From an uncultured Spirochaetota bacterium (GTDB taxonomy: Bacteria > Spirochaetota > Spirochaetia > SZUA-6 > Fen-1364): a stretch of 64,000 nucleotides of DNA. The first letter of the stretch is position 1. Every line of letters begins with the position of its first letter. Below are positions 30,967-63,140 of the stretch, piece after piece. The notes under the pieces were generated by a model, which saw only the letters and a list, made by a program, of their open reading frames with translations, was not told the origin of the DNA and searched no databases. The position numbers and the translations under genes were made by a program. The DNA lies in contig CAVTHO010000005.1 in the NCBI GenBank assembly GCA_963734545.1, positions 198,886-262,885 on the forward strand. Direction: 5' to 3'.

Positions 30967-31760
30967 TGAGCGCAACGATCATCGCGGCCGCCCGGGCGCT
31001 CGCGCGGCAGGCTGACAGGCTTCGCTTCAAAGAGCCGGTCCGCTACGTCTACAATCCGCTCGTGTACGCACGGCACCCCCACGAGGAGTATCTGGAAAGA
31101 TATGCAGCCTCTCGCAAGCGCCTGGTACTCCTGGGAATGAATCCGGGCCCCTGGGGCATGGCGCAGACCGGCGTGCCCTTCGGCGAGGTTGCGCTCGTTC
31201 GAGACTGGCTGGGTATCTCCGGAATTGTGACCCGGCCGCGTCAGCAGCATGCACGGGTACCGGTTCAGGGATTTGCGTGCGCGCGCAGTGAAGTGAGCGG
31301 CATGCGGCTCTGGGGGCTGATGCAGGCGCACTACGGGAGCGCGGGGGCGTTCTCGACAGACGCTTTCGTGTCCAACTACTGCCCTCTCCTGTTCCTCGAC
31401 GCTGCCGGCAGGAATATCACCCCGGACAGGATTCACCGGGACGATCGTGAGCCGCTCTATTCCCTGTGCGACAGGTTCCTGGCCATAGTAGTCGACGCGC
31501 TGCGCCCTGAATGGCTCGTGGGCGTAGGAGCATTTGCCGCGCGCCGCGCTCGAGCCGCCGCATCCTGCGGATTTGGCATCGCCGTACGGGGTATTCCCCG
31601 AACGGGTACTCCCGTACCCGGCGCCGCCGGGCTGCCCGACGTGCCTGCGCGGGCCGTTCGGGTCACCTCCATCCTCCATCCCAGCCCGGCAAGCCCGCGC
31701 GCCAATCGGGATTGGGCGGCGCAGGTGGAGGAAGCGCTCACTGCCCAGGAGATCTGGTGA
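30966..31760 (+). CDS. SMUG1-family (family 3) uracil-DNA glycosylase carrying an internal repeat insertion
   Basis: GMNPGPWGMAQTGVPFG motif A and HPSPASPRAN motif B. Its start abuts the dNK stop. Confidence 0.75.
   Translation: MSATIIAAARALARQADRLRFKEPVRYVYNPLVYARHPHEEYLERYAASRKRLVLLGMNPGPWGMAQTGVPFGEVALVRDWLGISGIVTRPRQQHARVPVQGFACARSEVSGMRLWGLMQAHYGSAGAFSTDAFVSNYCPLLFLDAAGRNITPDRIHRDDREPLYSLCDRFLAIVVDALRPEWLVGVGAFAARRARAAASCGFGIAVRGIPRTGTPVPGAAGLPDVPARAVRVTSILHPSPASPRANRDWAAQVEEALTAQEIW
31565..31630. repeat. GC-rich palindromic repeat (family member) inside the SMUG-type glycosylase CDS
   Basis: CTGCGGATTTGGCATCGCCGTACGGGGTATTCCCCGAACGGGTACTCCCGTACCCGGCGCC. The 26-mer at 31584-31609 is the exact reverse complement of 44306-44331. 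It shares CCGAACGGGTRCTCCCGTACC with 62.9 kb and GCGGATTTG with 53.9 kb. Confidence 0.8.
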
Positions 31761-31808
31761 CGGCGTCGCGCTTAACAGCGCCACGGTTCCGTGGTACCCT
31801 GTGAGTGC

Positions 31809-32222
31809 ATGCTGACCATTTCATCCAGAGGCGTGTACGGCCTGACCGCGGTGGTGGAGCTGGGGCGTCGCCACGGGCAGGGCACCGTGCAGATCAGGGA
31901 CATCGCGAAGGCCCACAACATCCCGCAGCACTACCTGGAGCAGATTCTGGTCACGCTGAAGAAAGCCCGACTGGTAAAGAGCCATCGCGGCTCACAGGGA
32001 GGCTACAGCCTGGCCAGAGGTCCCGCACAGATCAGGGTGCTCGAAGTCCTGGAGAGCGTCGAAGGAGAGCTTGAAGTCGTTCCCGTCCGAAAACGGGACG
32101 GTGTCCTGGCATTCTTCTGGAGCTCGCTCGATCAGGGGATTCGGGAAATCCTTGCCTTGAGTATTGAAGACCTGATCCTGGACATGCAGAAAGCCGACAG
32201 CCTGGTCAACTACTCCATTTGA
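31809..32222 (+). CDS. Rrf2-family transcriptional regulator
   Basis: MLTISSRGVYGLTAVVELG...IRDIA....IP..YLEQIL..L.KA.LV.S.RG..GGY.LAR winged-helix signature. No obvious C-terminal Cys triad. Confidence 0.85.
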   Translation: MLTISSRGVYGLTAVVELGRRHGQGTVQIRDIAKAHNIPQHYLEQILVTLKKARLVKSHRGSQGGYSLARGPAQIRVLEVLESVEGELEVVPVRKRDGVLAFFWSSLDQGIREILALSIEDLILDMQKADSLVNYSI

Positions 32223-32261
32223 TACGGCGCCTCTCGCGCTCCCCCCCTGCCTATCCAATAC

Positions 32262-32290
32262 TTGACTATCTCACTTGAGAATGTTATTCT
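32262..32290 (+). promoter_or_regulatory. Possible sigma-70-type promoter for the dsrE-like/tusA-like pair
   Basis: TTGACT (32262-32267), a 17-nt spacer, then TATTCT (32285-32290), about 25 nt upstream of ATG 32315 (RBS GGAGGTGG). ACTTGA occurs twice, 13 nt apart, across the spacer. Confidence 0.35.
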
Positions 32291-32314
32291 GTCATTGACC
32301 TGCACGGAGGTGGC

Positions 32315-32794
32315 ATGACGGAAAAGAAAAAACTCTCCCTGATCTGTTTCAGTGGAGATTTCGACAAGAGCGTCGCGGCCTTCACCCTGGCAACAGGGGC
32401 CGCAGCGGTGAACTACGAGGTGAACATGTTCTTCACCTTCTGGGGTCTGAACATCGTGAAGTCAGGCAGACGGCGCCGGCTCGTCGGCCGGGGTCCCCTT
32501 GCCCGGGTTTTCAATTTCCTCGCCGGCGGATCCGGCAACCTGCCGATGAGCAGGCTCAACTTTATGGGCGCCAGCCCCGGTTTGATGTCGCGCATGATGA
32601 AAAAGCGGAATGTCGCGACGCTGGAGCAGCTCGTACAGGCGGCCAAGGACCTGCGGGTGGGGCTGTATGCCTGCGAAATGTCCATGAATATCCTGGGCAT
32701 GAAACAGCCGGACTTCATCCCTGAAATAAAGGAAGTGATCGGCGTGCCGACATTCCTGAAGCTGTCGGAGGGCGGAGAAACCCTGTTCATATGA
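32315..32794 (+). CDS. DsrE/DsrF-like (DrsE_2) sulfur-relay family protein
   Basis: LSLICFSGDFDK..AAF.LA.GAAA...V.MFFTFWGL and a conserved Cys in LYACEMSM. It is ATGA-type coupled to the tusA-like gene. Confidence 0.72.
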   Translation: MTEKKKLSLICFSGDFDKSVAAFTLATGAAAVNYEVNMFFTFWGLNIVKSGRRRRLVGRGPLARVFNFLAGGSGNLPMSRLNFMGASPGLMSRMMKKRNVATLEQLVQAAKDLRVGLYACEMSMNILGMKQPDFIPEIKEVIGVPTFLKLSEGGETLFI

Positions 32795-33021
32795 GCATGA
32801 TAAAGCAATCCCTGGACATCACGCAGGAGCACTGCCCGATGACATTTGTGAAGGCGAGGCTGGCACTGGAAAAACTGGCCGCGGGCGACCAGTTGGAGGT
32901 CTTCCTGAGCGAAGGCGAGCCGCTGCAGAGCGTGCCGCGCTCAGCGACCGAGCAGGGTTACAAGGTCCTGGAGGTTGCCCAGGTGGAGGGAACCCGCTAC
33001 AGAGTCCTGTTCGAGAAGTAG
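32791..33021 (+). CDS. TusA/SirA-like sulfur carrier protein
   Basis: 76 aa with an N-terminal active-site Cys in LDITQEHCPMTFVKARLAL and a two-layer alpha/beta pattern. Confidence 0.8.
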   Translation: MSMIKQSLDITQEHCPMTFVKARLALEKLAAGDQLEVFLSEGEPLQSVPRSATEQGYKVLEVAQVEGTRYRVLFEK

Positions 33022-33030
33022 CAGACCGGC

Positions 33031-33100
33031 GATTCAGCGCGCCGCGGTATTCCTCGGATTCAGCGCGCCGCGGTATTCCGCGGATTCTGGCGCGGGCCCG
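33031..33100. repeat. GC-rich palindromic repeat, tandem 26-nt units, between convergent genes and forming the 3' end of the kinase CDS
   Basis: GATTCAGCGCGCCGCGGTATTCCTCG / GATTCAGCGCGCCGCGGTATTCCGCG / GATTCTGGCGCGGGCC. The core GCGCCGCGGTAYTCCGCGGATT is shared with 53.9 and 62.9 kb. Confidence 0.8.
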
Positions 33101-34743
33101 CGATCTCCTGCCTGCGCGCGTCCTGCCCGGGAACCCTCGGGAGCATTGAGCAGGGCGAAGCTTTCCTTGTTGCTCCTGTACAGCCTCTTGAACACTTCGA
33201 ATCCGCGCGCGTACACGCCGGCGCGCCCTGCATCCGGGGCAAAAGCCTTCCGAATAGAAACGAGGGCCGCGGCAGCCTCGAAGCTGGGGATACGGCCCAA
33301 TGCTATGCCGCACAGCAAGGCCGCGCCTGCAGCACCCGCATTCTGCGGGCTCGCGACCGCCTCCACGCGCTTTCCCGTCACGTCGGCGAGGATCTGGCTG
33401 GTGCTGTCCGAAATCGCGCCGCCTCCCGCGAAACGCAGTTTCTCCACCGGGGAGGTCTTTGCCTCCATGCACTCCAGTATCCAGCGCTTGTGATAGGCGA
33501 TCCCCTCCACCACTGCGCGAATCAGATTCCGTTTGCCGGTCTCCAGCCCGATATTGAAAAACATTCCGCGGGCATTCGGGTCCTCGAAGGGAGACCTGTT
33601 GCCGTGGAGCCAGGGTGTGAAGATGGCCCCCCCGCTGCCTGCCTCGGTTTCCTGGATCACATGATCGAGGTATTCCAGAAGGGTCGCGTATCCGCTGTCC
33701 GGCCGGTCATGCGCCTGCCGTCCTTCCTGGTAGACGCCGATTTCATCCAGGGCCAGATGGTCCCGTACCCACTCGAGGCACTTCCCTGAAGTCTCCTGCT
33801 CGCCGATGTAATTGTAGAAGCCTGGCCGGGCCGCGAGGATGGAGCCAATGAAGTGGTCCAGATCCACGATGCGCCGCTGCACGACCCGGGAGACCCATCC
33901 AGAGGTTCCCACGTAGACGTGTGTATCACCGGGCGCGACACAGCCGCACCCGACGGCCAGCATGGTCACGTCCCCGCCTCCACCGATGACCGGCGTCCCT
34001 TCCCTGAGGCCCAGCTCGTGCGCGGCAACCGGGGTGAGCGCGCCGACCGTTGCCGTGGAGGGGACGACACCCGGCATGTGCCGCGGCGCGACGCCGAAAG
34101 TGCGAAGCAGAGGCCTGCTCCATCCCCTCCGGCCCGGCCGTGTGTCGTAGAGAAAGGTGACGTGGGCGCTGTCTTCCGTCATCAGCGCGTTGCCCGTGCA
34201 GCGCAGGAGCAGATACTCCTTCACGTCGAGCCAGGCATGGATCCGACGGAAGACATCCGGCTCATTCTCCCTGACCCATGCATACTTCCACACGGGGTCC
34301 TTGACGCTCGCCGAGGCACCGCCGGTGACAATGAGAGAAAGAAGGAGCCTGCGCGCGTTCAGCCCTGCCACACGAAGCCCGGATCCGATGCCACGGGTCC
34401 ACTGCGCACCGGCACGCTGGTCCATGTAGCTCATGGCGGGACGGAGAGCGCGGCCCTCCGCGTCGACGAGCACCAACCCCTGCATCTGGCAGCAGAAGGA
34501 GAGCGCGCCGATCGATTCGGAGGGAACCCCGGTCCGGGCCAGCACGTCGCGGGTGGTGACCCTCATGGCATTCCACCAGTCCTCGGGGTCCTGTTCCGCT
34601 CCGCCGGAAGGGAAGATGCGCAAGGGATACTTCTGGGTCGCGCTTCCGAGCAGCCGCAGCGTGCTGCCCAGCGCGAAAAGGCAGGTCTTTGCGCTCGTGG
34701 TTCCGATGTCGAAGGCAAGGACGTGGAGCGGCTCAGTCATCAT
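33034..34743 (-). CDS. FGGY-family carbohydrate kinase (xylulokinase-like)
   Basis: N-terminal LAFDIGTTSAKT phosphate-1 motif, GGGDV..LAVGCG, and a C-terminal FGGY_C region (GGGA.S....QILADV.G). The last ~20 aa (..ESAEYRGALNPRNTAAR) are encoded by the repeat. Confidence 0.85.
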   Translation of the reverse strand: MMTEPLHVLAFDIGTTSAKTCLFALGSTLRLLGSATQKYPLRIFPSGGAEQDPEDWWNAMRVTTRDVLARTGVPSESIGALSFCCQMQGLVLVDAEGRALRPAMSYMDQRAGAQWTRGIGSGLRVAGLNARRLLLSLIVTGGASASVKDPVWKYAWVRENEPDVFRRIHAWLDVKEYLLLRCTGNALMTEDSAHVTFLYDTRPGRRGWSRPLLRTFGVAPRHMPGVVPSTATVGALTPVAAHELGLREGTPVIGGGGDVTMLAVGCGCVAPGDTHVYVGTSGWVSRVVQRRIVDLDHFIGSILAARPGFYNYIGEQETSGKCLEWVRDHLALDEIGVYQEGRQAHDRPDSGYATLLEYLDHVIQETEAGSGGAIFTPWLHGNRSPFEDPNARGMFFNIGLETGKRNLIRAVVEGIAYHKRWILECMEAKTSPVEKLRFAGGGAISDSTSQILADVTGKRVEAVASPQNAGAAGAALLCGIALGRIPSFEAAAALVSIRKAFAPDAGRAGVYARGFEVFKRLYRSNKESFALLNAPEGSRAGRAQAGDRGPAPESAEYRGALNPRNTAAR

Positions 34744-36864: not shown

Positions 36865-36891
36865 CGCCGATCCCCTTGATTTCGCCTAAGT

Positions 36892-37771: not shown

Positions 37772-38977
37772 GTGATCATCGAACCGAAAATCAGGAATAA
37801 TGTCTGCCTGACCGCACACCCCACGGGGTGCGCCCGTCAGGTGGCAGACCAGATCGAATACGTGCGGAAACACGGCGTAATGAAATCGGCCGCAGGGCTC
37901 CCGACCCGGGCCCTGATTGTCGGCTCCTCCAATGGCTACGGGCTGGCTTCCCGCATCGTGGCCGCGTACGGATGCGGTGCAGCCACGGTCGGCATCGCCT
38001 TCGAGCGGCCCGGCTCCAACGACCAGGGTCGTGACAAAGTCGGCACGGCCGGCTGGTACAACGACCAGGCGTTCCTGAAACGCGCGGCGGCCGACGGCCT
38101 GGGTGCGTGGAGCCTGAACGGCGACGCCTTCTCCCAGGAAGTGAAAGATCAGGCAATCGATCTGATCCGCAGCAACCTCGGCCCTGTAGACCTCCTGATC
38201 TACAGCATCGCCTCCCCTCGGCGGCAGGATCCTGCCACCGGCACCCTCCACTCTTCGGTAATCAAGCCGATCGGCAAGCCGTACGTATCAGCCAGCCTTG
38301 ATTTTCTGACCGGAGTAGTGTCGGAAACGCGCGCCGATCCCGCGGTCTCCCAGCAGGAAATCGACGACACGGTCAAGGTCATGGGCGGTGAGGACTGGAA
38401 GCTCTGGGTGGAGGCGCTCCAGCGGGCAGGCCTGCTCGCGGACCGCGCAACCACCGTCGCATTCTCCTACATCGGACCGTCCTTTACCGCTCCCATCTAT
38501 CGGGACGGCACTATCGGCCGGGCCAAGGAGCACCTGGAGGAGACCGCCCGGCAGCTTCACAGCGTCCTTTCACGGCGCGGCGGCCGGGCACTGGTGTCGG
38601 TGAACAAGGCCCTGGTCACGCGGGCCAGCGCCGTCATACCTGCGGTTCCGCTTTACATCGCCATACTCTACCGGGTCATGAAGGAGAAGGGACTGCACGA
38701 GGCGTGCATCCAGCAGATGGACCGGCTCTTCCGCGAATTCCTGTACGCGGACCGCCCGCTGCAGGTTGACAGTGAGGGCCGGGTACGGCTGGATGACCTG
38801 GAGATGAGGGAGGACGTGCAGGGCGAGGTGGCACGACGCTGGCAGCAGGCCGCAACGGATACCATCCAGCAGCTGGCGGACGTGGAGGGATTCCGCAGTG
38901 AATACCTCAACTATCATGGATTCGGCGTGCACGGCATCGACTACGGCGTAGAAGTGGATCCGCGCGGAGACGCGTAG
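37772..38977 (+). CDS. fabV: Trans-2-enoyl-CoA/ACP reductase (FabV/TER family)
   Basis: GTG 37772 after AAGGAGG gives VIIEPKIRNNVCLTAHPTGC, the family N-terminus. GSSNGYGLASR, YSIASP, the Y...K region (FSYIGP....IYRDGTIGRAKEHLE), and KALVTRASAVIP. Confidence 0.85.
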   Translation: MIIEPKIRNNVCLTAHPTGCARQVADQIEYVRKHGVMKSAAGLPTRALIVGSSNGYGLASRIVAAYGCGAATVGIAFERPGSNDQGRDKVGTAGWYNDQAFLKRAAADGLGAWSLNGDAFSQEVKDQAIDLIRSNLGPVDLLIYSIASPRRQDPATGTLHSSVIKPIGKPYVSASLDFLTGVVSETRADPAVSQQEIDDTVKVMGGEDWKLWVEALQRAGLLADRATTVAFSYIGPSFTAPIYRDGTIGRAKEHLEETARQLHSVLSRRGGRALVSVNKALVTRASAVIPAVPLYIAILYRVMKEKGLHEACIQQMDRLFREFLYADRPLQVDSEGRVRLDDLEMREDVQGEVARRWQQAATDTIQQLADVEGFRSEYLNYHGFGVHGIDYGVEVDPRGDA

Positions 38978-38980
38978 GCA

Positions 38981-39170
38981 TGGATGCCGAGGGCGAGCGA
39001 GTCCAGGGATGGACGAAAGCGAGCCCGTAGGCCTTCCGCGGTATCCCGCGGAGTTGGATGGCGAGGGCGAGCGAGTCCAGGGATGGACGAAAGCGAGCCC
39101 GTAGCCAGGACGGCGAGGGCCGACGAGCACATGGATGTGCGAAAGGAGGCCCGTAGCCCTTCCGCGGTGG
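38981..39170. repeat. Intergenic tandem repeat, period 74 nt (two near-identical copies plus one diverged)
   Basis: TGGATGSCGAGGGCGAGCGAGTCCAGGGATGGACGAAAGCGAGCCCGTAG occurs at 38981-39030 and 39055-39104 with one mismatch. A third, diverged copy runs from 39105 to about 39170. Spacer CCTTCCGCGGTATCCCGCGGAGT resembles the CCGCGG repeat family. It lies between the convergent fabV and fhs genes. Confidence 0.85.
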
Positions 39171-39207: not shown

Positions 39208-40991
39208 CTAGAACAGTCCCTTCACCCTGCCCGTGTCTCAACGTCCACGTCGATGTTGCGGAACGCCGGCTCCGACGCGGTCCCGGGCATCAGCTTGATG
39301 TCTCCCGCCACGGGCACGATGAACCCCGCCCCCCGGTACTGCAGGATGTCGCGGATGGGAAGCGTCCACCCCTTCGGCCGTGCCCTTGATGCGTCGGGTC
39401 GTGCGACAGGGAGAGGTGCGTCTTCACCATGCAGGTGCCCAGCTTCGAGAGCTCGGCGTCCGCCTCTATGGCCTTCAGCTTCTCCTGCGCCAGCCGGCGT
39501 GTAGGAGACCCCGTCCGCGCCGTAGACCTTGGTGGCGATGAGCCGGATCCGCTCCGACAGCGGCGTGGAAAGCTCGTAGAGGAACTTGAACTTCGACGGC
39601 TGGTTGCAGGCGTCCACCACGGTCTCCGCCAGCTCCACGCGCGCCCTCGCCGCCCTTTTCCCAGTGCTTCGAGACGCGCCACACGCGCGCCCGCGGCTTC
39701 CGCGGCACTTGCTGCATGAGCGGCGATCTCCTCGTCGGTGTCCGTGTAGAAGTGGTTGATGCAGACCACGGGCTCGATGCCCGGAGAGCTTGATCGTCTC
39801 GATGTGCGCCACGAGGTTCTCCAGCCCCTTCTCCACCAGCGGCACGTTCTTTTCCGTGTAGGCCTTGTCCAGCGCCTTCCCGGGCGCCACCCGCGGCCCG
39901 CCGCCGTGCATCTTCAGCGCGCGCACGGTGCACACGAGCACGGAGCAGTTCGGCGTGAGCCCGCTGAAGCGGCACTTCAGGTTCCAGAACTTCTCGAACC
40001 CGATGTCCGCGGCGAAGCCGCTCTCCGTCACGTGGTAGTCGGCCAGCTTCAGCGCCACGCGGTCCGCGATGATCGACGACTGGCCGATGGCGATGTTGGC
40101 AAAGGGCCCCGCGTGCACGAGCACCGGCTGGCCCTCGATGGTCTGCAGGAGGTTCGGGTTGATGGCCTTGGCCATGAGGGCGGTCATGGCCCCGTCACAG
40201 CCCAGGTCGTGCGTGGTGACGGGCTGCCCGGACTTGCTGTAGGCCACGACGATCCGGCCCATGCGCTCGCGCATGTCCTTCAGGTCCGAGGCAACGGCGA
40301 GGATGGCCATGATCTCCGAGGAGACGGTGATCTGGAACCCGCTCTTCATCATGAACCCGTCCATGTCGGAGCCCAGGCCGATGATGATCTCCCGCAGCGC
40401 CTGCGCGCAGAAGTCGATGCACCAGCCCTGCGCGATGTTGCGGGGGTCGATGTCCAGGCGCGTGAGGCCGCGCTTGCGCGAGGCCCGCGTCGCCGTAGTT
40501 GAACTCGTGCTGCATCCGCGCGGTGAGCGCCACCATGGAGAGGTTGTGCGCGTTGGTGATGGCATCGATGTCGCCGGTGAGCCCGAGGGAGAAATCGGTG
40601 AGCGGGATGCACTGCGCCAGCCCGCCGCCCGCGGCCGAGCCCTTGATGTTGAACGTCGGTCCCGCCGGAAGGCTGGCGGATGGCGCCGATGACCTTCTTG
40701 CCGATCTTCCCGAGGCCCTCCACGAGCCCCATGGTCGTGGTGGACTTGCCCTCGCCCAGGGGGGTGGGGGTGATGGCCGTGACCTCGACGTATTTCCCGT
40801 CGGGCCGTGCCTGTCAGCCTGTTCGAGGATGCTCATGTAGTCGAGCTTGGCCACATAGTGGCCGTAGGGCAGGAGCTCCTTTTCCTCGAGGCCCAGCTCC
40901 CGGCGCAAGCTGCTTCACCGGCTTCATGTCCGGCTTCCGCGGCCTCCGCAATCTCCCAGTCCTTCATCGTCTTCGGATCAAGCCTGCTCAT
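39208..40991 (-). pseudogene. fhs: Formate--tetrahydrofolate ligase with 11 reading-frame breaks (degraded gene or low-quality consensus)
   Basis: Segments in all three minus frames concatenate into a full FHS: MSRLDPKTMKDWEIAEAAEAG | MKPVKQLA | RELGLEEKELLPYG... | [26 protein letters not shown]...RQPSGG | [13 protein letters not shown]... | [13 protein letters not shown]...HAGPFANIA...VRALKMHGG...IKLSG | IEPVVCINHFYTDTDEE... | VSKHWEKGGEGAR | ELAETVV...GADGVSYTP | LAQEKLKAIE...SLSHDP | ..ARPKGWTLPIRD...AGFIVPVAGDIKLMPG...NIDVDV | DTGRVKGLF*. RBS GAGGAGGAG. Confidence 0.85.
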
Positions 40992-41109
40992 CTTCTCCTC
41001 CTCGGCTGCAACCTCGCGCGCATCATGCGGAGATGAACCGTGCGTAGTGTATATCCCCTGCCCGGGGGTAGCAACTGATCCGCTCACCGTTGTATCCTCG
41101 GCCCGTACA

Positions 41110-42565
41110 ATGACCTCACCGCAGGACTCCCACACGCACGATGCACCGGCACACGATGAGGGCGGTTTTTTCCAGCGGCTTGCCCGGCGCACGGAGAGCT
41201 CCCTTCTCTGCGTGGGCATCGATCCGCCCCTGGAGGCTGTCCCCGTCGGGGAGCTCTTCGCATACGGCCGGAGGATCGTGGACGCTACGCGCGAAGCGGC
41301 ATGCCTGTACAAGCCGAACATCGCATTCTTCGAGGCGCGCGGCATCGAGGGTCTGGAAAGGCTGCGGGAGCTGATCGACTACATTCACGAGGCAGGCTTC
41401 CTCGTGCTCCTCGACGCCAAGAGGGGCGACATCTCCTCCACGGCCGCCGCGTACGGGCATGCGGCCTTCACCCAGTGGCGGGCGGACGCCCTGACGGTCA
41501 ACCCGCTCCTCGGCGGGGATGGTGTGGAGCCGTTCACCGCGTACACGGATCGCGGCGTCTTTATCCTGTGTCATACCTCCAATCCCGGGGCGAAGGAGCT
41601 CCAGGAGCTCGATGTGGGAGGCATGCCCCTGTACGAGCGCATCGCCCGGCTTGCCGACGGATGGAACTCGCGCGGCAACGTGGGTCTCGTGGTGGGAGCA
41701 ACGTTTCCGGAGGTTCTCGAGCGCGTGCGCATGATCGTACCGGATATGTGGCTGCTGCTTCCCGGCATCGGCGCCCAGGGCGGCGACCTCGACGCGAGTC
41801 TCGAGGCGGCATTGGACGACTCGGGAACCAGGGTCCTCGTGAATGTATCCCGCTCAATCTCGGACGCCGCCGACCCGCGCGCAGCGGCAATCGCGTACAG
41901 GGACCGGGTGAACACCGCCCGGGAGAAGCGTGCGCGGCGCGCCAGGACACTGCGGCCGGGCACATCCCGCGCTCTTGCCGACCAGATCGCCCTGGGCCTG
42001 CACGAGCTGGGCGCCATTCGCTTCGGAGAGTTCACCCTCAAGTCCGGACTGCTTTCCCCCCTGTACGTCGATCTCCGTCTCCTGGTGAGCAACCCGAAGC
42101 TCATGGCGCTCGTGGCGCGCTCGCTCGCCCGGCTTCTGCAGGACCTCCGGTTCGACCGCATCGCGGCCATTCCCTACGGCGGGCTCCCCATCGGACAGGC
42201 CGTGGCAATGGCGTGCGACAGACCGCTCATCTATCCGCGCAAGGAGGCCAAGGAGCACGGGACGAAGAACCTGATCGAAGGCGCATACTCGGCCGGAGAG
42301 ACGGTCGTCGTCCTGGATGACCTGATCACGACCGGCGGGAGCAAGCTCGAGGCCATGGCGCCGCTCACGGACGCGGGCCTGAAGGTGAAGGACGTGGTCG
42401 TCCTGGTGGACCGGGAACAGGGCGGAAGAGCAGGAGCTCGCCGCGCATGGGCTGGCTCTCCATGCCGTGCTCACGCTAAGCGAGCTCCTGGACTCACTGG
42501 TGCGCGGCGGCAGGATCAGCGAAACGGTGCGCAGGGATGTGCGCGCTCGCCTCGGGATCGGTTGA
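41110..42565 (+). CDS. pyrF/pyrE: Bifunctional orotidine-5'-phosphate decarboxylase (type 2) / orotate phosphoribosyltransferase fusion; one frame break at about 42421-42430
   Basis: The N-terminal half is PyrF type 2 ([27 protein letters not shown]). The C-terminal half is PyrE ([19 protein letters not shown] loop [13 protein letters not shown]). The tail [21 protein letters not shown]...GIG* is reached by dropping one A at GGA[A]GAG. ORF-track residues upstream of ATG 41110 are antisense to fhs. Confidence 0.8.
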
Positions 42566-43549
42566 CCTTTCCTGCCGGATCGCGGGGGTTCGCCTTTCCA
42601 ATCCCCTCGTCCTGGCCTCCGGTATCTGGGGCACCTCTCCCTCCCTGCTGGAGCGGGCCGCCCGTACGGGAGCCGGCGCGGTCACCGCAAAGACCTGCAC
42701 CCCCGTCCCGCGCAGGGGCCACAGGAATCCGACGGCAATCGACTGGGGTCATGGCCTGATCAACGCCATGGGGCTGCCGAATCCGGGCGCGGAGGAGGAG
42801 GTCAGGCTCCTTCAGGAAGCCGTCCGCAGGCTGGCCCCCCTCGGGGTGCCGCTCATTGCGAGCATCTCCGCGGACACGGCGGAGGACTTCGGCCGAGGCC
42901 GCCGCGATCGTCTCACGCGCGGGCCCTGCCCTCATCGAGGTGAACATCTCCTGCCCCAACGTGCAGTCGGAGCAATGCGAGATGTTCGCCGCCTCGGCGG
43001 AGGCTGCCGCGCAGGTCACGCGCAGCGTGAAAGCCGCCACGTCCATCCCCTGCATCATCAAGCTCTCCCCGAACGTGCCCGACATCGGGGCGATCGCCCG
43101 GGCGGTCGTGGCCGCGGGCGCGGACGCCATCACGGCCATCAACACCATGCCGGGCATGCTCGTGGATGCGGAGACAGGCGCGCCGGTTCTGGCCAACCGC
43201 AGCGGCGGCATCTCGGGGCCGGCGCTCAAGCCCATTGCGCTTCGATGCGTGCACGAGATCGCCTCGGCCGTGGAGCGTTCCCCTCATCGGCACCGGCGGC
43301 GTGCTCTCGGGCCAGGATGCGGTGGAGATGATATCCGCGGGCGCGGTCTGCGTGGGAGTGGGCTCCGCTGTCTTCTATCGCGGGGAGAACGCGTTCTCGC
43401 TCATCCGGGACGAGCTCTCCCGATGGCTGCGGGACCGCGGGTACACCTGTCTGCAGGAGATCCGCGGCAGGACCCACCGGCCATTGGACGCGCGAGGCGG
43501 GAGCAATCCCGCCGCCCGTGCCCGGCTGGGAGGAAGACGATGCCCGATA
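42537..43549 (+). CDS. pyrD: Dihydroorotate dehydrogenase, class 1B catalytic subunit; at least 2 frame breaks (about 42885-42897 and 43273-43280); 3' end uncertain
   Basis: L.NP...[74 protein letters not shown]. These segments are spread over three frames. Confidence 0.8.
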
Positions 43550-44361
43550 GTCTTCACCGGCCCGCGCGCGTCACCAGGAGGATCGTGGAGAACGCGAAGA
43601 CCGTTTCGCTCGTCCTGGATGTCTCGATGACGGCAGCTCCCGGGCAGTTTGCCATGCTCTGGATTCCCGGCATGGACGAGAAACCATTCAGCATCTCGGA
43701 CGCAGACCCGCTTCAGTTCACCATCGCCCGGGTCGGACCGTTCAGCGACGTCCTGCATGCTCTCGAAGTCGGCGACACGCTTTGGGTGCGCGGTCCCTTC
43801 GGCACGGGGATACTCGGCGGCAGCGGGGCGCACGCTCCTCGTGGGCGGAGGCTACGGCGCCGCGCCGCTGTGCTTCCTGGGGCGCTCGATCCTGGAAGCA
43901 GGAGCCGCCGGTATCGAGGCCGCGCTGGGGGCCCGGACCTCGGCTGACCTCCTGTTCGTGGAGCGATTTCAGGCCCTTGGCGCGGAGGTGCACGTGGCAA
44001 CCGAAGACGGCTCCGCGGGCACGCGGGGACGCGTGACGGATGTCGTGGCGCCGCTCCTGGAATCGGGCAGGTTCGCGCGGCTGTGCGCCTGCGGTCCCGA
44101 GGGCATGCTGGAAAGCCTTGCCGATGCTCTGCCGCGCGGCCCGCGTGCCCGCGGAGCTGTCCTACGAGGCATACATGCGCTGCGGCATCGGCATCTGCGG
44201 CTCCTGCGAGCACGGCGGCGCGCCTGGTGTGCATGGACGGCCCGGTCGTCTCCGTCGCGGCGCCCGAGTACGGGAGTGCGCGGGGACGCGCTCGGCCCGA
44301 AGGCCGTACCCGTTCGGGGAATACCCCGTACGGAACCGCCATGGGGACTGACCGGCCATGA
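43540..44361 (+). CDS. pyrK: Dihydroorotate dehydrogenase electron-transfer subunit (FAD/[2Fe-2S]); 3 frame breaks (about 43804-43812, 44129-44136, 44214-44224)
   Basis: RBS GGAGGAAG then ATG 43540. [38 protein letters not shown], and Fe-S motif [23 protein letters not shown]. The C-terminal tail contains a repeat element. The stop overlaps the methyltransferase start (ATGA). Confidence 0.75.
44290..44345. repeat. GC-rich palindromic repeat (family member) in the 3' end of pyrK
   Basis: GGCCGTACCCGTTCGGGGAATACCCCGTACGGAACCGCC. The 26-mer at 44306-44331 is the exact reverse complement of 31584-31609. Confidence 0.8.
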
Positions 44362-45143
44362 GCGTGCGGCCCTTCTTCTCGACCGGCCAGCTCACGATTT
44401 TCAATGCGAACGTGCTCTCCACCCGGGCGGTCGCCCCCGGCAGCGTCAACCTGATCGTCACGTCACCTCCCTACAACGTCGATATCGCCTACGGAAAACA
44501 CGACGACGCGCTCTCCTACCCGCAGTATCTCCGGTTCAGCCGCAGGTGGCTGGCACGGTGCTTTTCCTGGCTCCGGGAGGACGGAAGGCTCTGCCTGAAC
44601 ATCCCCCTGGACAAGAACAAGGACGGCCAGCAGAGCGTGGGTGCCGACCTTACATCCATCGCAAAGGAGATCGGCTTCCACTACCACTCGACGATCGTGT
44701 GGAACGAAGGGAATATCTCCCGGCGCACCGCGTGGGGCTCGTGGATGAGCGCCTCCGCGCCATACGTGATCGCCCCCGTGGAGTTGATCGTTGTTCTGTA
44801 TCGCGCGCACTGGAAAAGGCGTTCCGGCACCGGCGAGTCGGACATCACGAGACGCGAGTTCATGGACTGGACAAACGGGCTCTGGACATTCAACGGGGAA
44901 AGCAGGAAAAGGACGGGCCACCCGGCTCCGTTCCCCCTGGAGCTGCCCCGGCGCTGCGTCAAGCTCTTCAGCTTTGTCGGTGACACGGTCCTCGACCCCT
45001 TCATGGGCAGCGGCACGACGCTGTGTGCCGCCGCAGGCTGCGGCAGAAAGGCCATCGGCATCGAGATCGAGGAACGCTACTGCGCGCTTGCCGCGGCGCG
45101 CCTTGAAAGAACGCTCCCGATGGACCACAATGCAGGGCCGTGA
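44358..45143 (+). CDS. Beta-class DNA methyltransferase (N4-cytosine or N6-adenine), no adjacent endonuclease
   Basis: Catalytic motif IV-like IVTSPPYNV near the N-terminus, and AdoMet motif I-like VLDPFMGSGTT near the C-terminus (beta-class order). HPAPFP motif. Intact frame. Confidence 0.85.
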   Translation: MSVRPFFSTGQLTIFNANVLSTRAVAPGSVNLIVTSPPYNVDIAYGKHDDALSYPQYLRFSRRWLARCFSWLREDGRLCLNIPLDKNKDGQQSVGADLTSIAKEIGFHYHSTIVWNEGNISRRTAWGSWMSASAPYVIAPVELIVVLYRAHWKRRSGTGESDITRREFMDWTNGLWTFNGESRKRTGHPAPFPLELPRRCVKLFSFVGDTVLDPFMGSGTTLCAAAGCGRKAIGIEIEERYCALAAARLERTLPMDHNAGP

Positions 45144-53332: not shown

Positions 53333-54328
53333 TTGTCGATGAATCCAAGGCCGTTCAAAGCTGATGTGCCCACTCTGCACCCCGCAACCCTCCTGGGTCC
53401 GATCACGATACGGGTCGGGGACCTCGAGCGTTCGGTCCAGTTCTATGAAAAGGCGATCGGCCTTGCGTCCGCTCGCCAGGCCGGAGGGCACACTGCTCTC
53501 GGCGTGAAAGATGAGCCGCCCCTGATTTTCCTGCAGGAAACGCCCGGCGCGCGGCATGCGCCGAGGAGCTCCGGGCTCTACCACTTCGCGATATTGCTCC
53601 CCACCCGGGCCGACCTTGGCCGTGCCCTGCAGCGGCTGATCGACTCCGATATCCGCTTTGGCCAGGCGGATCACCTCGTGAGCGAGGCCCTGTACCTTTC
53701 GGACCCGGACGGAAATGGCATGGAGATTTATCGGGATCGACCGCGCACGGAATGGACCTGGCGCGCCGGGAAAGTCGAGATGACGGTCGATCCGCTGGAC
53801 CTCGACAGCCTGCTGAAAGACGCGGGAACAATCGAGGGCTCACCGCGCGCCGGGGAGATTCGCGCCGCGGTACCCCGCGGATTTGATGGCGCCGCGGTAC
53901 TCCGCGGATTTGATGGCGCCTCCGCACCCCGCGGATTCGGCGCCGCGCCGGCAGGTACCACCATCGGGCATCTCCACCTCCAGGTGTCGGACGTACAGAA
54001 GGCTGTGGAGTTCTACCACGGCGTGCTCGGATTCGACATCACCGCCTCATTTCAAGGAGCGGCGTTCCTCAGTGCGGGCGGCTATCATCACCATCTCGGA
54101 CTGAACAGCTGGAACTCGCGCGGAGCGCCCGCCGCCCCGCCCGGCTCCTCCGGGCTGGAGTCATTCACGATCCGGGTGCCCTCCGCAGACGAGCAGGGGC
54201 GCATCGCAGCGCGCCTCAGGCAGGCGGGTGTACCCGGCGTCTTCGAGAATGGACGGTTGAGCGTGCGGGACCCGTGGAATATCGGGATAGAGATTATTTC
54301 GGAAACGCCCGCGAGCCCCGCCGGCTGA
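53333..54328 (+). CDS. Two-domain VOC/glyoxalase-family protein (CatE-like) with a repeat-encoded inter-domain insertion
   Basis: Two VOC modules (ITIRVGDLERSVQFYEKAIGL...H.A...; IGHLHLQVSDVQKAVEFYHGVLGF...HHHLGLN) separated by AAVPRGFDG AAVLRGFDG ASAPRGFG. Confidence 0.8.
   Translation: MSMNPRPFKADVPTLHPATLLGPITIRVGDLERSVQFYEKAIGLASARQAGGHTALGVKDEPPLIFLQETPGARHAPRSSGLYHFAILLPTRADLGRALQRLIDSDIRFGQADHLVSEALYLSDPDGNGMEIYRDRPRTEWTWRAGKVEMTVDPLDLDSLLKDAGTIEGSPRAGEIRAAVPRGFDGAAVLRGFDGASAPRGFGAAPAGTTIGHLHLQVSDVQKAVEFYHGVLGFDITASFQGAAFLSAGGYHHHLGLNSWNSRGAPAAPPGSSGLESFTIRVPSADEQGRIAARLRQAGVPGVFENGRLSVRDPWNIGIEIISETPASPAG
53862..53950. repeat. GC-rich palindromic repeat, tandem 27-nt (9-codon) units inside the VOC gene
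   Basis: GCGCCGCGGTACCCCGCGGATTTGATG (53862-53888) / GCGCCGCGGTACTCCGCGGATTTGATG (53889-53915) / GCGCCTCCGCACCCCGCGGATTCG / GCGCCGCGCC. Confidence 0.85.
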
Positions 54329-56987: not shown

Positions 56988-58520
56988 TCAGCTCCTGCTG
57001 AGGACCGCTTGGTGGCCAATGGTCGCGTACCCCATGATGGCTTCCTGGCTGGCCTCTTCAATGGGAAGCTCCCCGGTGAGCCTTCCCTCTGACATTACGA
57101 TGATGCGGTCGCTCATGCGGAGGATCTCAGGCAGCTCCGACGAGATCATGATGACCGACTTGCCCTCTCGGGTCAGCTCGTTCATCAGCGTATAGATTTC
57201 ACTTTTCGCCCCCACGTCGATCCCGCGGGTCGGCTCGTCGAAGATCAGGATGTCGCAGTTGCGGATGAGCCACTTGGCGATAACGACCTTCTGCTGGTTC
57301 CCCCCGGAGAGATTTCTCAGGAGCTGTTCAAGGGAGGGCGTCTTGATGTTCAGCCGGCGCACGTACTCTTCAGTCGCCTGCCGCACCTTTTTTGCATTGA
57401 TGAACAGGCCGCGCTGGAAGCGGTTGTACGTGGCCAATGCCAGGTTGTCCCGCACGCTCAGGTTGACCGCGAGGCCGAAGCGCTTGCGGTCTTCTGAGAG
57501 GTAGCCGATCCCGTTCGCCACGGCATCCTCCGGCGACTGGATGGACACGCGGCGTCCCCGCACCTCGATCGTGCCGCTCTGGACCTCGTCCGCGCCGAAG
57601 ATGGCCCGCGCCGTTTCGGTCCGGCCGGATCCCATCAGCCCGGCGATGCCGAGGATTTCCCCCTGCCGCAGGTCGAAGCTGACGTCCCGCACGAGCCTCC
57701 CGGCGTTCAGCCGGTTCACCCGCAGAACGACCGGCGCGTTCGGTGGAACGCTGCCGCGCGTCTTCGGCTGCTCGTAGATGACCCGGCCCACCATCATGTT
57801 GATGATCTGCTGCTTGGTCACCTCGGCGGTCGGCTTCGTATCGACGCGCTCGCCGTCGCGCAGAACCGTCACCCGATGGGCAATGCGGTGGATCTCGTCG
57901 AGGCGGTGGGAAATGTGGATCATCGCCACGCCCCGGCTCGCCAGGTCGCGCATGATGGCGAAAAGCTCGTCGATCTCGGCGTCCGTCAGCGCGGCTGTCG
58001 GCTCGTCCAGGATCAGAATTCGCAGTCGGTGCGACACCGCCTTCGCGATCTCCACCATCTGCTGCTTGCCGACTGACAGCCGCCCGAGCGGCTCGTTGGG
58101 ATCGATGTTCATCTTCAGCCGCTTGAACAACTCCTCCGCCCGCCGGGTCTGCTCGCGCTTGTCCAGAAAGATGCCATTGAGACGGGTGGATTCCCTTCCG
58201 ATGAAGATGTTCTGGGCCACCGTGAGGTGATACATCATGTTCAATTCCTGGTGGATGATCCCGATGCCCATCTCGAGGGCATGCTTGGGGCTGCGCGGAT
58301 TGAACAAGTGGCCGAGGTAGTGGATTTCCCCGGAATCTTTCGCATTGATGCCGATGAGGACCTTCATGAGCGTCGACTTGCCGGCGCCGTTCTCCCCGAC
58401 CAGCGCGTGGATCTCAGCCTCGTCGAGATCGAAGTCCACCTGCCGCAGGGCATGCACACCAGTGAAGCGTTTGTCGATTCTCTGCATGGAGAGGATTTGC
58501 CGGCCCATATTGATTGCCAC
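56988..58520 (-). CDS. Sugar ABC transporter ATP-binding protein (two fused NBDs)
   Basis: GENGAGKSTL, LSVGKQQMVEIAKAV, LILDEPT, HISHRL; second half LSGGNQQKVVIAKWL, LIFDEPTRGIDV. Confidence 0.9.
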   Translation of the reverse strand: MAINMGRQILSMQRIDKRFTGVHALRQVDFDLDEAEIHALVGENGAGKSTLMKVLIGINAKDSGEIHYLGHLFNPRSPKHALEMGIGIIHQELNMMYHLTVAQNIFIGRESTRLNGIFLDKREQTRRAEELFKRLKMNIDPNEPLGRLSVGKQQMVEIAKAVSHRLRILILDEPTAALTDAEIDELFAIMRDLASRGVAMIHISHRLDEIHRIAHRVTVLRDGERVDTKPTAEVTKQQIINMMVGRVIYEQPKTRGSVPPNAPVVLRVNRLNAGRLVRDVSFDLRQGEILGIAGLMGSGRTETARAIFGADEVQSGTIEVRGRRVSIQSPEDAVANGIGYLSEDRKRFGLAVNLSVRDNLALATYNRFQRGLFINAKKVRQATEEYVRRLNIKTPSLEQLLRNLSGGNQQKVVIAKWLIRNCDILIFDEPTRGIDVGAKSEIYTLMNELTREGKSVIMISSELPEILRMSDRIIVMSEGRLTGELPIEEASQEAIMGYATIGHQAVLSRS

Positions 58521-58727
58521 GATTATTGCGTGCTTTCCGGCTTATGTAAAGAGAGAGCTTTCAATCGTGCGGCTCGCCATACATGCGCTACGAAACAATG
58601 GTACGAATAACGCGCACGGAGAGTCAAGCTGCGGCACTCCCTCGTCAGAAATCCATTTGAAGGAAAGCCATTCCGGCGCCTTACGCGACCGTTGCCCCGG
58701 CGCGGGCACGACGATACATTCTACGCG

Positions 58728-59468: not shown

Positions 59469-59564
59469 AGCTGCCCGCTCCGCTGATCGCACCCGCTCGC
59501 CGACACGCGCGTGTGCAGGCCCAGGCGTTTCCTCATGTACGACTATTTTAGTACTATTTATCCG

Positions 59565-61375: not shown

Positions 61376-61377
61376 GA

Positions 61378-62370
61378 GTGTCGGACGCGCGGGCTTCACA
61401 GCGAAAGCCGGAGTGGCTGAAGATCCGGCTCAATACGACGGAGAGCTACGTCGCCGTCAAGAATCTCGTGCGCGCGGGGGAGCTGCACACCGTCTGCGAG
61501 GAGGCGCGCTGTCCCAATCTGCACGAGTGCTGGGGCACGCACCGTACGGCGAGCTTCATGATCCTGGGAGACACCTGCACGCGGCGCTGCCGTTTCTGCG
61601 CCGTGGGCACCGGTCTGCCCGGCGAGGTGGACCGCCTGGAGCCCCTGCGCGTGGCAGCGGCCGTCATGCGCATGGGGTTGAAGCACGCTCATGTCACGAT
61701 GGTCAACAGGGATGACCTGGCGGACGGCGGCGCATTCATGATGGCCTCAACTGTCCGCGCCATCCACGCGCGCGTGCCGGACTGCTCGATCGAGGTCCTC
61801 ACCTCTGACTTCATGGGCTCCCGGGAGGCCATCCACGCCGTGGTGGAGAGCGCGGCCGACGTGGTGAGCCACAACGTGGAAACAGTACGCAGGCTGACGC
61901 CCCTCGTGCGCTCGCGCTCCAGCTATGACAGGTCGCTGGAGTTCCTCCGTATCGCAAAAGAGCTCGACCCGGAAGGCGTCACCAAGTCGAGCATCATGCT
62001 CGGGCTGGGCGAATCGCGCGAGGAGGTGATCTCCACACTGGAGGACCTTCGCGCGGCGCGTGTGGACATTGTCAACATCGGGCAGTACCTCCAGCCCACG
62101 CGCAACAACATCCCGGTGGACAGGTACTGGCACCCCGGTGAGTTCGCGGAGCTCAAGGAAGTCGCCATGGAGAAGGGCTTCCTCTACTGCGAGGCAGGGC
62201 CGCTGGTCCGGTCCTCCTATCACGCCGGAGAGCAGTACGAGGGGTTTCGCGAGCACCTCGCCCGCATCCGCGCCGCCGTACCCGGCGGATTGGGCGCCGC
62301 TGTACCCGGCGGATTGGGCGCCGCCGCAGGCGGATCCCGGGCGGCGCAAAATCCAGACCTGCCTACATGA
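61378..62370 (+). CDS. lipA: Lipoyl synthase with a repeat-encoded C-terminal extension
   Basis: KPEWLK, auxiliary-cluster motif CEEARCPNLHEC, radical-SAM motif CTRRCRFC, and C-terminal RSSYHA. GTG 61378 is the likely start, 2 nt after the upstream stop. The tail is AAVPGGLG AAVPGGLG AAAGGS... Confidence 0.88.
   Translation: MSDARASQRKPEWLKIRLNTTESYVAVKNLVRAGELHTVCEEARCPNLHECWGTHRTASFMILGDTCTRRCRFCAVGTGLPGEVDRLEPLRVAAAVMRMGLKHAHVTMVNRDDLADGGAFMMASTVRAIHARVPDCSIEVLTSDFMGSREAIHAVVESAADVVSHNVETVRRLTPLVRSRSSYDRSLEFLRIAKELDPEGVTKSSIMLGLGESREEVISTLEDLRAARVDIVNIGQYLQPTRNNIPVDRYWHPGEFAELKEVAMEKGFLYCEAGPLVRSSYHAGEQYEGFREHLARIRAAVPGGLGAAVPGGLGAAAGGSRAAQNPDLPT
62270..62345. repeat. GC-rich repeat, tandem 24-nt (8-codon) units in the lipA 3' end
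   Basis: GCGCCGCCGTACCCGGCGGATTGG (62270-62293) / GCGCCGCTGTACCCGGCGGATTGG (62294-62317) / GCGCCGCCGCAGGCGGATCCCGG. It is related to the 27-nt unit at 53.9 kb. Confidence 0.85.
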
Positions 62371-63140
62371 TCGACGTTTCCTCGCACCGGCCCGCTGCCG
62401 CCCGGCGAGGTGCGCGAGTCCATCGCGTCCTGCACGTCCGCGACCTCACCGAGAGCGCCTTTGTGCTGCGGTTCTCCCGGGAAGGCCTTGTCTTCCGTGC
62501 CGGGCAGTGGGTGAATCTCGGGCTGCCGCGAAGCAGGGACCAGCGCGAGTACTCGCTTTATTCCTCACCCGGGGATTCCTTCCTCGAGGTCCTCGTCAAG
62601 GAGATCCCTGAAGGAACGGTGTCCCGCGCTCTCCGCCGCTGCCGTCCGGGAGATGCGTTGGAGGTGGACGGGCCTCACGGCTCCTTCACCCTGGTCGAGG
62701 GCACGCGCGCATCCGCTCAATTCCTGTTCATCGCCACCGGCACCGGCGTCTCGCCCTTTCACTGCTTTGCCCGGAACAATCCCGGACTGGACTATCTCCT
62801 GCTGCACGGGGTCAGGGACGCTTCCGAGCTGTACGACAGCGGGACCTTCGCTCCGGACCGATTCATCCCCTGCATCAGCCGGGGACACGGTGCCGAATCC
62901 GCGGGACACGGCGTACCCGCCGAACGGGTGCTCCCGTACCGCGGCGCCAAATCCGCGGAGTACCGCGGCGCGCGTAATGCCTATGCCGGCCGTGTCACCA
63001 CCTACCTGGCCGAGCAGCCGGTGGAGACTTCGCGGTACTGCTACCTGTGTGGCAACAGCGACATGATCTATGAAGCCTACGCGCTGCTGAAGAAGCGCGG
63101 TGTTTCCCACTCCCGCATCTTCGCCGAGGTCTACTTCTAG
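62367..63140 (+). CDS. Ferredoxin-NADP reductase-like flavoprotein (FAD_binding_6 + NAD_binding_1) with a repeat-encoded internal insertion
   Basis: ATGA overlap with the lipA stop. R.YS motif (REYSLYS), GPHG, FIATGTG.SP, and C-terminal CGNSDMI...F.EVYF. An insertion of about 30 aa (GHGAESAGHGVPAERVLPYRGAKSAEYRGARN) lies between ISR and YAGRVT. Confidence 0.75.
   Translation: MIDVSSHRPAAARRGARVHRVLHVRDLTESAFVLRFSREGLVFRAGQWVNLGLPRSRDQREYSLYSSPGDSFLEVLVKEIPEGTVSRALRRCRPGDALEVDGPHGSFTLVEGTRASAQFLFIATGTGVSPFHCFARNNPGLDYLLLHGVRDASELYDSGTFAPDRFIPCISRGHGAESAGHGVPAERVLPYRGAKSAEYRGARNAYAGRVTTYLAEQPVETSRYCYLCGNSDMIYEAYALLKKRGVSHSRIFAEVYF
62890..62975. repeat. GC-rich palindromic repeat (composite family member) inside the FNR-like CDS
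   Basis: GCCGAATCCGCGGGACACGGCGTACCCGCCGAACGGGTGCTCCCGTACCGCGGCGCCAAATCCGCGGAGTACCGCGGCGCGCG. It combines the CCGAACGGGTRCTCCCGTACC block (31.6 kb) with the GTACCGCGGCGC / AATCCGCGG block (33.0 and 53.9 kb). Confidence 0.8.

Follow-up and report, generated by a model that had tools for sequence, protein, structure and literature searches.

Seven loci within a 64-kb stretch of DNA from an uncultured Spirochaetota bacterium (contig CAVTHO010000005.1, positions 198,886 to 262,885; hereafter the window, 63.2% G+C) carry members of a family of hairpin repeats that is real and far beyond chance. We consider it likely that these loci are copies of lineage-specific, very short hairpin DNA repeats of an uncultured peat Spirochaetia clade, akin to repetitive extragenic palindromes (REPs) and bacterial interspersed mosaic elements (BIMEs). 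A literature search found no earlier description of this family, which to our knowledge is a previously undescribed REP-like variant. Its basic unit, A, reads GCG-CCGCGG-TAYY-CCGCGG-ATT followed by 1 to 5 variable bases, the 6-bp stem and 4-nt loop forming a 16-nt hairpin within a conserved core of 22 nt. Module B (GGCGT.C.CGCCGAACGGGTRCTCCCGTA, two copies of which carry GGGGTATTCCCC) consists of two mini-hairpins that resemble each other, and module C is an imperfect hairpin of about 47 nt with the core GAGTCCAGGGATGGACGAAAGCGAGCC, present in three copies at 38981-39156 together with a special unit A' (CTTCCGCGGTAYYCCGCGGAGT). The loci of the window comprise the following elements.

31552..31575, plus strand: degenerate unit A (GAGCCGCCGCATCCTGCGGATTTG) with four mismatches to the consensus, in the open reading frame (ORF) of a SMUG1-type glycosylase (30966-31760, plus strand).
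31587..31640, plus strand: module B, 54 nt, in the same SMUG1 ORF, with the hairpins GGGG-TATT-CCCC and ACGGG-TACT-CCCGT.
33031..33100, plus strand: two 26-nt units A (33039-33060, 33065-33086) and a partial unit, in the convergent spacer after a TusA-like gene that ends at 33021.
38981..39170, plus strand: mosaic of C (38981-39030), A' (39033-39054), C (39055-39104), C'' (39107-39156) and a partial A'; intergenic, between an enoyl-reductase gene (plus strand, ending at 38977) and fhs (minus strand, ending at 39222).
44290..44345, minus strand: module B, reversed, in the 3' tail of pyrK, directly before the start of a methylase gene at 44358.
53862..53950, plus strand: three 27-nt units A (53862-53883, 53889-53910, 53916-53937), in-frame in a VOC/glyoxalase protein (53333-54328, plus strand).
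62270..62345, plus strand: two 24-nt units A and a decayed third, in the C-terminal tail of lipoyl synthase (lipA, 61378-62370, plus strand).
62890..62975, minus strand: composite of a degenerate A (62896-62917, minus strand), B (62909-62940, plus strand) and A (62950-62971, minus strand), in-frame in an FNR-like flavoprotein (62367-63140, plus strand).

The 22-nt core of unit A (GCGCCGCGGTAYYCCGCGGATT) has eight matches at three or fewer mismatches in the window against 0.01 expected from 100 dinucleotide shuffles. When hairpins were defined by structure, namely a TAYY or RRTA tetraloop on a GC-rich stem of 5 bp or more without mispairs, ten were detected in the 64 kb and all ten fell within the seven loci, compared with a mean of 0.45 and a maximum of 2 in 200 shuffles. 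It is because both counts greatly exceed the shuffles that the family can be called real, and the similarity goes beyond GC-rich codon usage. Direct repeat families D2 and D14, which correspond to unit A, join positions 33065, 53862, 53889, 53916, 62270 and 62294; family D4 is the 50-nt unit of 38981-39156; and Tandem Repeats Finder reports arrays at 33031-33087 (period 26), 53862-53937 (period 27) and 62270-62326 (period 24). Inverted matches (I7, I9, I13-I16) also connect the loci, some joining 31551, 33032 and 53861 with 62933-62978, and I15 pairing 31582-31609 with 44306-44333 as a 28-nt block of 100% reverse complementarity. An earlier note made from this sequence had described palindromic blocks shared by seven loci; the blocks were recovered at all seven, and as DNA-level palindromic repeats they are shared between loci in both orientations. 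These results largely refute the explanation that the loci are independent local minisatellites, generated by slippage of the variable-number tandem repeat (VNTR) type and alike only through GC-rich codon usage or convergence of Ala/Gly/Pro linkers. Units do expand and contract locally and encode linker-like peptides rich in A, G, P and S, but blocks of 22-28 nt recur unchanged in either orientation, in four frames and for the most part in extragenic DNA, and beyond the clade only single matches in conserved genes were seen among the matches listed; we give this explanation very little credence.

Substitutions in the stem show that the hairpin is a conserved feature of unit A. Among 205 units within five mismatches of the consensus, 37 double changes preserve Watson-Crick pairing and three do not, whereas 7.6 doubles are expected if the two sides vary independently (compensated stems include CCGCCG/CGGCGG, CCACGG/CCGTGG and GCGCGG/CCGCGC). 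A second test, on 97 distinct sequences, gave 30 cells changed on both sides of the stem against 6.7 ± 2.3, and a covariation score of 0.213 against 0.094; none of 500 shuffles reached either value, and slid controls were far lower. Roughly 70% of clusters are single units and nearly all others are same-orientation tandems with periods of 23-27 nt, mixed orientation being found in 4 of 300.

The other modules combine with unit A in several ways. Module C is joined to A' and to B in BIME-like mosaics in the window and in three element-bearing stretches of related DNA (such stretches carry L numbers here: L031, L166 and L109), and the arrangement C-A'-B recurs in L031 (~4010-4125) and, as reverse complement, in L166 (~3730-3900); in relatives the mosaics also take the form C-A'-B-C'. 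Compensatory variants (GTCCA/TGGAC versus GTACA/TGTAC) are also visible in the stems of module C. A fourth hairpin, module D (22 nt, ACTGCACGGTGTACCGTGCAAG), occurs in relatives within the loop of unit A or A'; this nesting is seen at L210 6347-6418 and also at L080 (~2365), L087 (~7871), L079 (~2474) and L193 (~12670). The RNA fold of 38978-39110, at −66.3 kcal/mol, was matched by none of 200 shuffles (z = −4.8). A further hairpin-like unit, with a TTCG-type loop, is found in a related MAG (metagenome-assembled genome), where six perfect in-frame 24-nt repeats (GAATGCGCCGCTTCGCGTCGCAGG, encoding ECAASRRR) lie in a hydrogenase-like/histidine-kinase sensor protein (L014 6001-6171, minus strand).

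We scanned species-representative genomes with CCGCGGTAYYCCGCGGATT and metagenomes with the 22-mer, both totals being lower bounds. The genome scan returned at least 102 stretches, and 76 of those listed belong to peat or fen Spirochaetia MAGs (MFD04408.bin.2.124, SPRUCE 495/568/594/656, MGr1A1B1C bin_146, binchicken_co54_275 and fen_1364/1365), many of them with 2-4 tandem copies spaced 23-27 nt apart. The 26 other stretches among the matches listed contain one match each, and many represent one orthologous gene repeated across species, as with the RuvB motif RGTPRIANR and one gene common to Lentzea species. At least 120 stretches, largely from peat series and again with tandem copies, were obtained from metagenomes, and a scan of viral contigs gave no match. 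Orthologues of the window proteins are named Spirochaetia bacterium. Judged from the matches listed, the hairpin-repeat family is specific to one clade of uncultured peat and fen Spirochaetia, and the window derives from that clade.

To sort clusters by the coding state of their flanks, we used a classifier based on a codon-usage score trained on long ORFs of the clade, a simpler codon-usage gene caller having been discarded because genes with weak codon bias, SMUG1 among them, escaped it. Deep in long genes the classifier has a sensitivity of 97%, and it made no false call at 22 intergenic midpoints; it is blind within about 250 nt of a gene end and in weakly biased genes, so that the genic fractions are lower bounds. 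Clusters were distributed as follows.

Immediately after the stop codon of an ORF with a good score: 38 of 105 MAG loci, 48 of 150 metagenome loci.
Upstream of a gene only: 29 of 105 MAG loci, 44 of 150 metagenome loci.
Both flanks non-coding: 10 of 105 MAG loci, 20 of 150 metagenome loci.
ORF reading into the element: 15 of 105 MAG loci, 12 of 150 metagenome loci.
Internal and in-frame: 13 of 105 MAG loci, 26 of 150 metagenome loci.

Of the approximately 255 classifiable clusters combined, about 74% are thus extragenic, about 10% form read-through tails of ORFs and about 15% are internal and in-frame, so the earlier picture of predominantly in-frame insertion in genes is not borne out for the family. 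The 86 clusters directly after a stop codon mostly lie 1-15 nt from it. Orientation relative to the upstream gene is even (18 same, 18 opposite). When the ORFs around elements were clustered, the groups proved to be ordinary paralogues (histidine kinases, ABC ATPases), and no gene was linked to the elements. Where the element lies just upstream of a gene start in the Spirochaetia loci L002-L103, its GCG end faces the gene in 32 cases and its ATT end in 10, a possible bias that is 12:4 where an explicit Shine-Dalgarno sequence and start codon were demanded; in several of the upstream cases the element abuts the Shine-Dalgarno sequence.

This placement bears on the possibility that the repeats are functional cis-elements, transcribed hairpins that, placed just after stop codons, would stabilize the 3' ends of mRNAs, act as attenuators or terminators of transcription, hold up terminating ribosomes or offer a host protein a binding site at CCGCGG-N4-CCGCGG, with the genic copies as spill-over. 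Such a role would fit the many copies 1-15 nt from stop codons, the stem kept by covariation and the possible upstream orientation bias, and REPs of E. coli located at most 15 nt from a stop codon are known to lower translation (PMC12306157). On the other hand, the unbiased 3'-end orientation and the lack of a real U-tract are not those of classical intrinsic terminators (a candidate that we rejected, the 3' tail being only ATT(Y)), the whole window has no Rfam match at the gathering score, and copy number varies freely between near-identical strains, unlike that of a tuned regulator. We regard a functional role of this kind as a serious but doubtful contender.

Of the six possible frames, copies inside genes use four. 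The 29 internal copies use the frames APRYPAD (10), NPRxTAA (9), ESAxYRGA (6) and AAVPRGF (4), counts that overstate independence since some of the copies are orthologous, and none uses either of the two Arg-rich frames (RRGTPRI and IRGVPRR). The period of internal arrays is a multiple of three in all four cases from relatives and is 27 nt in the VOC array of the window, whereas extragenic arrays show all periods from 23 to 27. Because four frames are used, the two Arg-rich ones are avoided and internal periods are multiples of three, the pattern indicates a DNA element that is probably blind to reading frame and is then filtered by selection on the encoded protein. It follows from the extragenic arrays that whole-codon units of 27 or 24 nt, once taken as typical, are not general in the family: the array at 33031 has a period of 26, and extragenic arrays frequently have periods of 23, 25 or 26 nt. 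A repeat acting at the peptide level was rejected since both orientations and four frames are in use; CRISPR was likewise rejected, there being no spacers.

The host genes of the window document how the elements enter proteins. Six loci are overlapped by host ORFs, rather than the five first recognized, the missing one being the FGGY-kinase ORF (33034-34743, minus strand), which enters the 33031-33100 array and terminates within it. Passage of the reading frame through well-conserved enzymes stands for SMUG1, VOC and the FNR-like protein, where the insertions are internal; in lipA, pyrK and the FGGY kinase the elements form C-terminal tails. Protein Data Bank (PDB) homologues and orthologues from other taxa that lack the inserts delimit the three internal ones and confirm their status as insertions.

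In SMUG1, unit A and module B together insert about 24-27 aa directly before the strand leading to the HPSPASP motif, and the Geobacter enzyme (PDB 5h93) aligns only to residues 6-207 and 231-253 of the window protein. Exactly the 24-nt unit A is absent from L001, which is 96.5% identical to the window, while the syntenic L135 (87% identical) has a canonical unit A and lacks the 54-nt module B; the two modules are therefore present or absent independently across these three sequences. L135 also carries the array at the position equivalent to 33031-33100. An exact-protein look-up with the DsrE-like ORF led to L001; look-ups with the FNR-like and methylase ORFs had no match. Orthologues of SMUG1 contain 0, 1, 2 or at least 3 AAVLGGFG units at the same loop, and outgroups contain none. 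In the VOC protein the units encode AAVPRGFDG AAVLRGFDG ASAPRGFG in the linker between its two domains; orthologues have 0, 1, 2 or 3 units at this linker and distant orthologues have none, although at the DNA level the '0-unit' allele of an orthologue still contains half a unit. A target site was not recoverable from '0-unit' and '1-unit' orthologue DNA of VOC and SMUG1, these sequences being too diverged. Many orthologues of the FNR-like protein have nothing in the loop that separates SRG from NAYAGRVT, where the window protein has 26 aa, some orthologues have 8 aa and one has 38 aa; among syntenic contigs, L105 and L108 have no insert at this loop, L106 has a single 24-nt unit, and the window and L107 contain composites, that of L107 being larger.

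AlphaFold2 models place two of these inserts in regions of low predicted confidence (pLDDT, predicted local distance difference test). SMUG1 has a mean pLDDT of 81, with residues 204-227 below 50 and unstructured between H189-200 and E232-236, and residues 174-202 of the FNR-like protein are below 50 and have no secondary structure. The SMUG1 and FNR-like inserts are thus modelled as disordered loops in otherwise confident folds.

Two of the C-terminal tails are delimited by PDB homologues. E. coli XylB (PDB 2itm) aligns to the FGGY kinase only up to residue 523 of 569, leaving about 46 aa of extra tail, and M. tuberculosis LipA (PDB 5exi) aligns to the window LipA only up to residue 293 of 330. 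The lipA units, whose stem is compensated (CCGCCG/CGGCGG), account for a 37-aa tail, the stop codon of lipA overlaps the ATG of the next gene, and the two 24-nt units are absent from the syntenic relatives L105, L107 and L108. ATGA stop/start overlaps directly follow arrays at lipA (62367-62370) and, in one frame, at pyrK (44358-44362). Relatives (L105-L108, around position 1501) also have 0, 1 or 3 extra 24-nt units just inside the N-terminus of the FNR-like protein, annotated as YSADSAS or PYPADFA repeats, which means that arrays straddle gene junctions.

At pyrK, a continuing reading frame cannot be asserted as the note had done, because the gene is frameshifted near 44215, upstream of the element, and the translated frame across module B, where all three were read, is uncertain. 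Several genes in 39222-44362 are split across frames: coverage of the Pfam profile of pyrD is spread over three of them (2-110, 122-238 and 240-290), that of the fhs profile over two (20-153 and 152-549), and pyrK has at least three frame shifts, for example between CEHGGA and RLVCMDGPV near 44215. These splits are due to indels introduced in assembling a long-read contig, or else to a series of pseudogenes. One may ask whether the repeats themselves arose in assembly or sequencing, as artefacts of GC-rich palindromes in a MAG built from long reads, given that the frameshifted pyrD, pyrK and fhs suggest indel errors in places. This explanation is refuted by independent assemblies, since several MAG projects, Joint Genome Institute (JGI) peat metagenomes, and ENA and Logan contigs share the family at the same orthologous sites, and its probability is close to nil.

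The in-frame insertions raise the further possibility of a miniature transposon resembling the Rickettsia palindromic elements (RPEs), with in-frame insertion in coding genes as its niche. Three internal in-frame insertions and three read-through tails within 32 kb, the position of inserts in predicted disordered loops and the maintenance of frame in internal arrays all speak for it. The two systems are alike in having in-frame palindromic inserts in unrelated housekeeping enzymes, at fold-compatible sites and with presence that varies between related genomes. RPEs, however, are about 100-150 bp long and each family encodes a conserved peptide (PMC10969869), whereas the spirochaete units measure 22-27 nt, often have periods that are not multiples of three, and are read in four frames, hence encode no conserved peptide of their own; moreover, among the copies that could be classified in relatives, about 74% fall outside genes, with clustering just after stops. 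The hosts differ as well, RPEs residing in obligate intracellular alphaproteobacteria and the hairpin repeats in free-living peat spirochaetes. An RPE analogy drawn earlier therefore survives for the in-frame behaviour and the preference for loops and linkers, not for membership, and an RPE-like transposon seems to us improbable.

Turnover of the repeats is apparent between closely related sequences. At four or more loci, contigs that are 99-100% identical in their flanks are set apart by 1-2 whole units: L004/L132 by +2 x 27 nt, L085/L184 by −26 and −27 nt, L096/L221 by +27 nt, and L061/L182 by four versus two units; L001 and the window differ by a 24-nt indel. In L132 (11498-11515) and L210, whose flanks are 100% identical, the 22-nt D hairpin is found in the A' loop of L210 only, which could represent a nested insertion, a precise loss or gene conversion. 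In two pairs of filled and empty sites, L005/L037 and L106/L105, CGGCG(C) is present where the site is empty and recurs at each end of the insert where it is filled; the sequence is GC-rich, and the motif is indistinguishable from the periodicity of the unit itself.

Local growth and shrinkage of arrays would result from replication slippage or unequal recombination at repeats, which fits the data well, and modules may be shuffled by gene conversion between copies. Seeding of new loci would need a trans-acting activity on single-stranded hairpins. The elements may be mainly selfish or neutral, with at most generic 3'-hairpin effects on mRNA. Copies in coding sequence have been retained at disordered loops, between domains and at either end of the protein; they are read only in frames that give small neutral residues and so persist as translated in-frame insertions or tail extensions. 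A bolder proposal is that the 22-27-nt hairpins are currently mobile by a mechanism independent of RAYTs (REP-associated tyrosine transposases) that acts on extruded single-stranded hairpins, seeding at GCGCCG-like sites and in the loops of other copies and continually supplying housekeeping enzymes with in-frame variation in their linkers and loops. We advance it tentatively and think it unlikely; if true, these would be among the smallest mobile DNA units known and a free-living counterpart of the RPE phenomenon. As to features of miniature inverted-repeat transposable elements, no parent insertion sequence was seen. A weak RayT tblastn match in L179 has no Pfam family and was rejected as a RAYT. 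Retroelements are present in these genomes, as a gene neighbouring the VOC orthologue in L229 (1063-1070) has a group II intron maturase domain (GIIM).

Other repeats of the window lie outside the hairpin family. The CTGCTG-rich imperfect repeats at 22500-22910 (families D1 and D3; ORF 22014-23597, minus strand) are probably low-complexity or coiled-coil coding sequence unrelated to it. Long imperfect inverted matches (I1-I6, 70-88% identity) between 7250-8630 and 16800-16900 on one side and 57060-58420 on the other correspond to sugar-type ABC-transporter ATPase paralogues on opposite strands, that is, to ordinary paralogy.

Several known systems invite comparison. Mycobacterial interspersed repetitive units (MIRUs), VNTRs of mycobacteria, are dispersed tandem loci whose copy number varies among strains, frequently placed where the stop codon of one gene overlaps the start codon of the next; their units are 46-100 bp, are not simple hairpins and are essentially intergenic. 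The strain-variable arrays and the lipA/FNR and pyrK/methylase junctions of the window, with their ATGA overlaps, recall them. SMAG and other small GTAG repeats of Stenotrophomonas and Pseudomonas are 22-25-nt hairpins found singly, as dimers or in clusters, in some cases within genes. They have a GTAG tag, a link to RAYT genes and dimers arranged head-to-head or tail-to-tail. The spirochaete family shares the hairpin units, singles and clusters and the presence of some copies in genes, and differs in having no GTAG and in being head-to-tail (the comparison also draws on PMC3733652).

The closest likeness is to REPs and BIMEs. REPs are defined as short, palindromic, multi-copy sequences that are mostly extragenic near 3' ends (PMC12306157), and intragenic copies have been documented, some in DNA-repair genes (PMC3733652). 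The peat family has the unit length (about 20-40 nt), the maintained stem-loop, the lineage-restricted dispersal and the mainly extragenic placement of REPs. It shares with REPs and BIMEs the short GC-rich stem-loops in many dispersed copies, mostly intergenic near gene 3' ends, and also the mosaics with small motifs, the occasional copies in ORFs (at termini and in loops) and an abundance that varies between lineages (PMC3733652).

A number of results nevertheless weigh against a REP-like identity. In position frequencies compiled for 234 copies and their surroundings, GCG precedes the hairpin and ATT follows it, the latter having formed part of the search pattern, and there is no GTAG or CGTC end tag of the kind that the REP superfamilies of Di Nocera et al. 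2013 (PMC3733652) carry; the 16-nt hairpin is also at the short end of the REP range. Arrays are head-to-tail with periods of 23-27 nt, not the inverted pairs typical of REPINs (REP doublets forming hairpins) and BIMEs. Furthermore, no tblastn hit of E. coli RayT rose above noise (E ≥ 0.17) in approximately 1.35 Mb of element-bearing DNA, which comprised the window together with 102 loci from genomes and 120 from metagenomes, and a regular-expression scan for HUH...Y found no ORF with the motif in the window and the Spirochaetia MAG loci; with no RAYT or Y1 transposase found in element-bearing DNA, the mobilizing step has no candidate enzyme. The target-site duplication evidence rests on the two filled and empty pairs, too few to call. 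The share of copies in ORFs seems high for REPs, at least about 25%: six of the seven window loci touch ORFs, more than the approximately 25% in relatives, and the classifier called only three of the six genic window loci genic, so the genic share in relatives is probably too low. Lastly, fold energies of the genic loci in the window are unexceptional for GC-rich sequence (z from −2.0 to +0.9), and as these loci fold no better than shuffles, thermodynamic stability alone is no evidence here. Lineage-specific, REP/BIME-like hairpin repeats remain, in our judgement, the probable identity of the seven loci.

These repeats add a clear free-living case to a phenomenon known mainly from Rickettsia RPEs and scattered intragenic REPs, in which selfish hairpin repeats become translated parts of conserved enzymes. 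Their practical consequence is that arrays shift the start and stop calls of adjacent genes, as in the YSADSAS and PYPADFA N-termini, and will confound the annotation and assembly of MAGs. The record they leave is unusually legible, with orthologue series of 0, 1, 2 and 3 units at one loop in three enzymes, near-identical strains that differ by whole units, and a frame usage that points to selection on the encoded peptide. How often repeats enter proteins, which sites and frames are tolerated and how fast copies turn over are questions that can be addressed with existing peat metagenomes, metatranscriptomes and metaproteomes.

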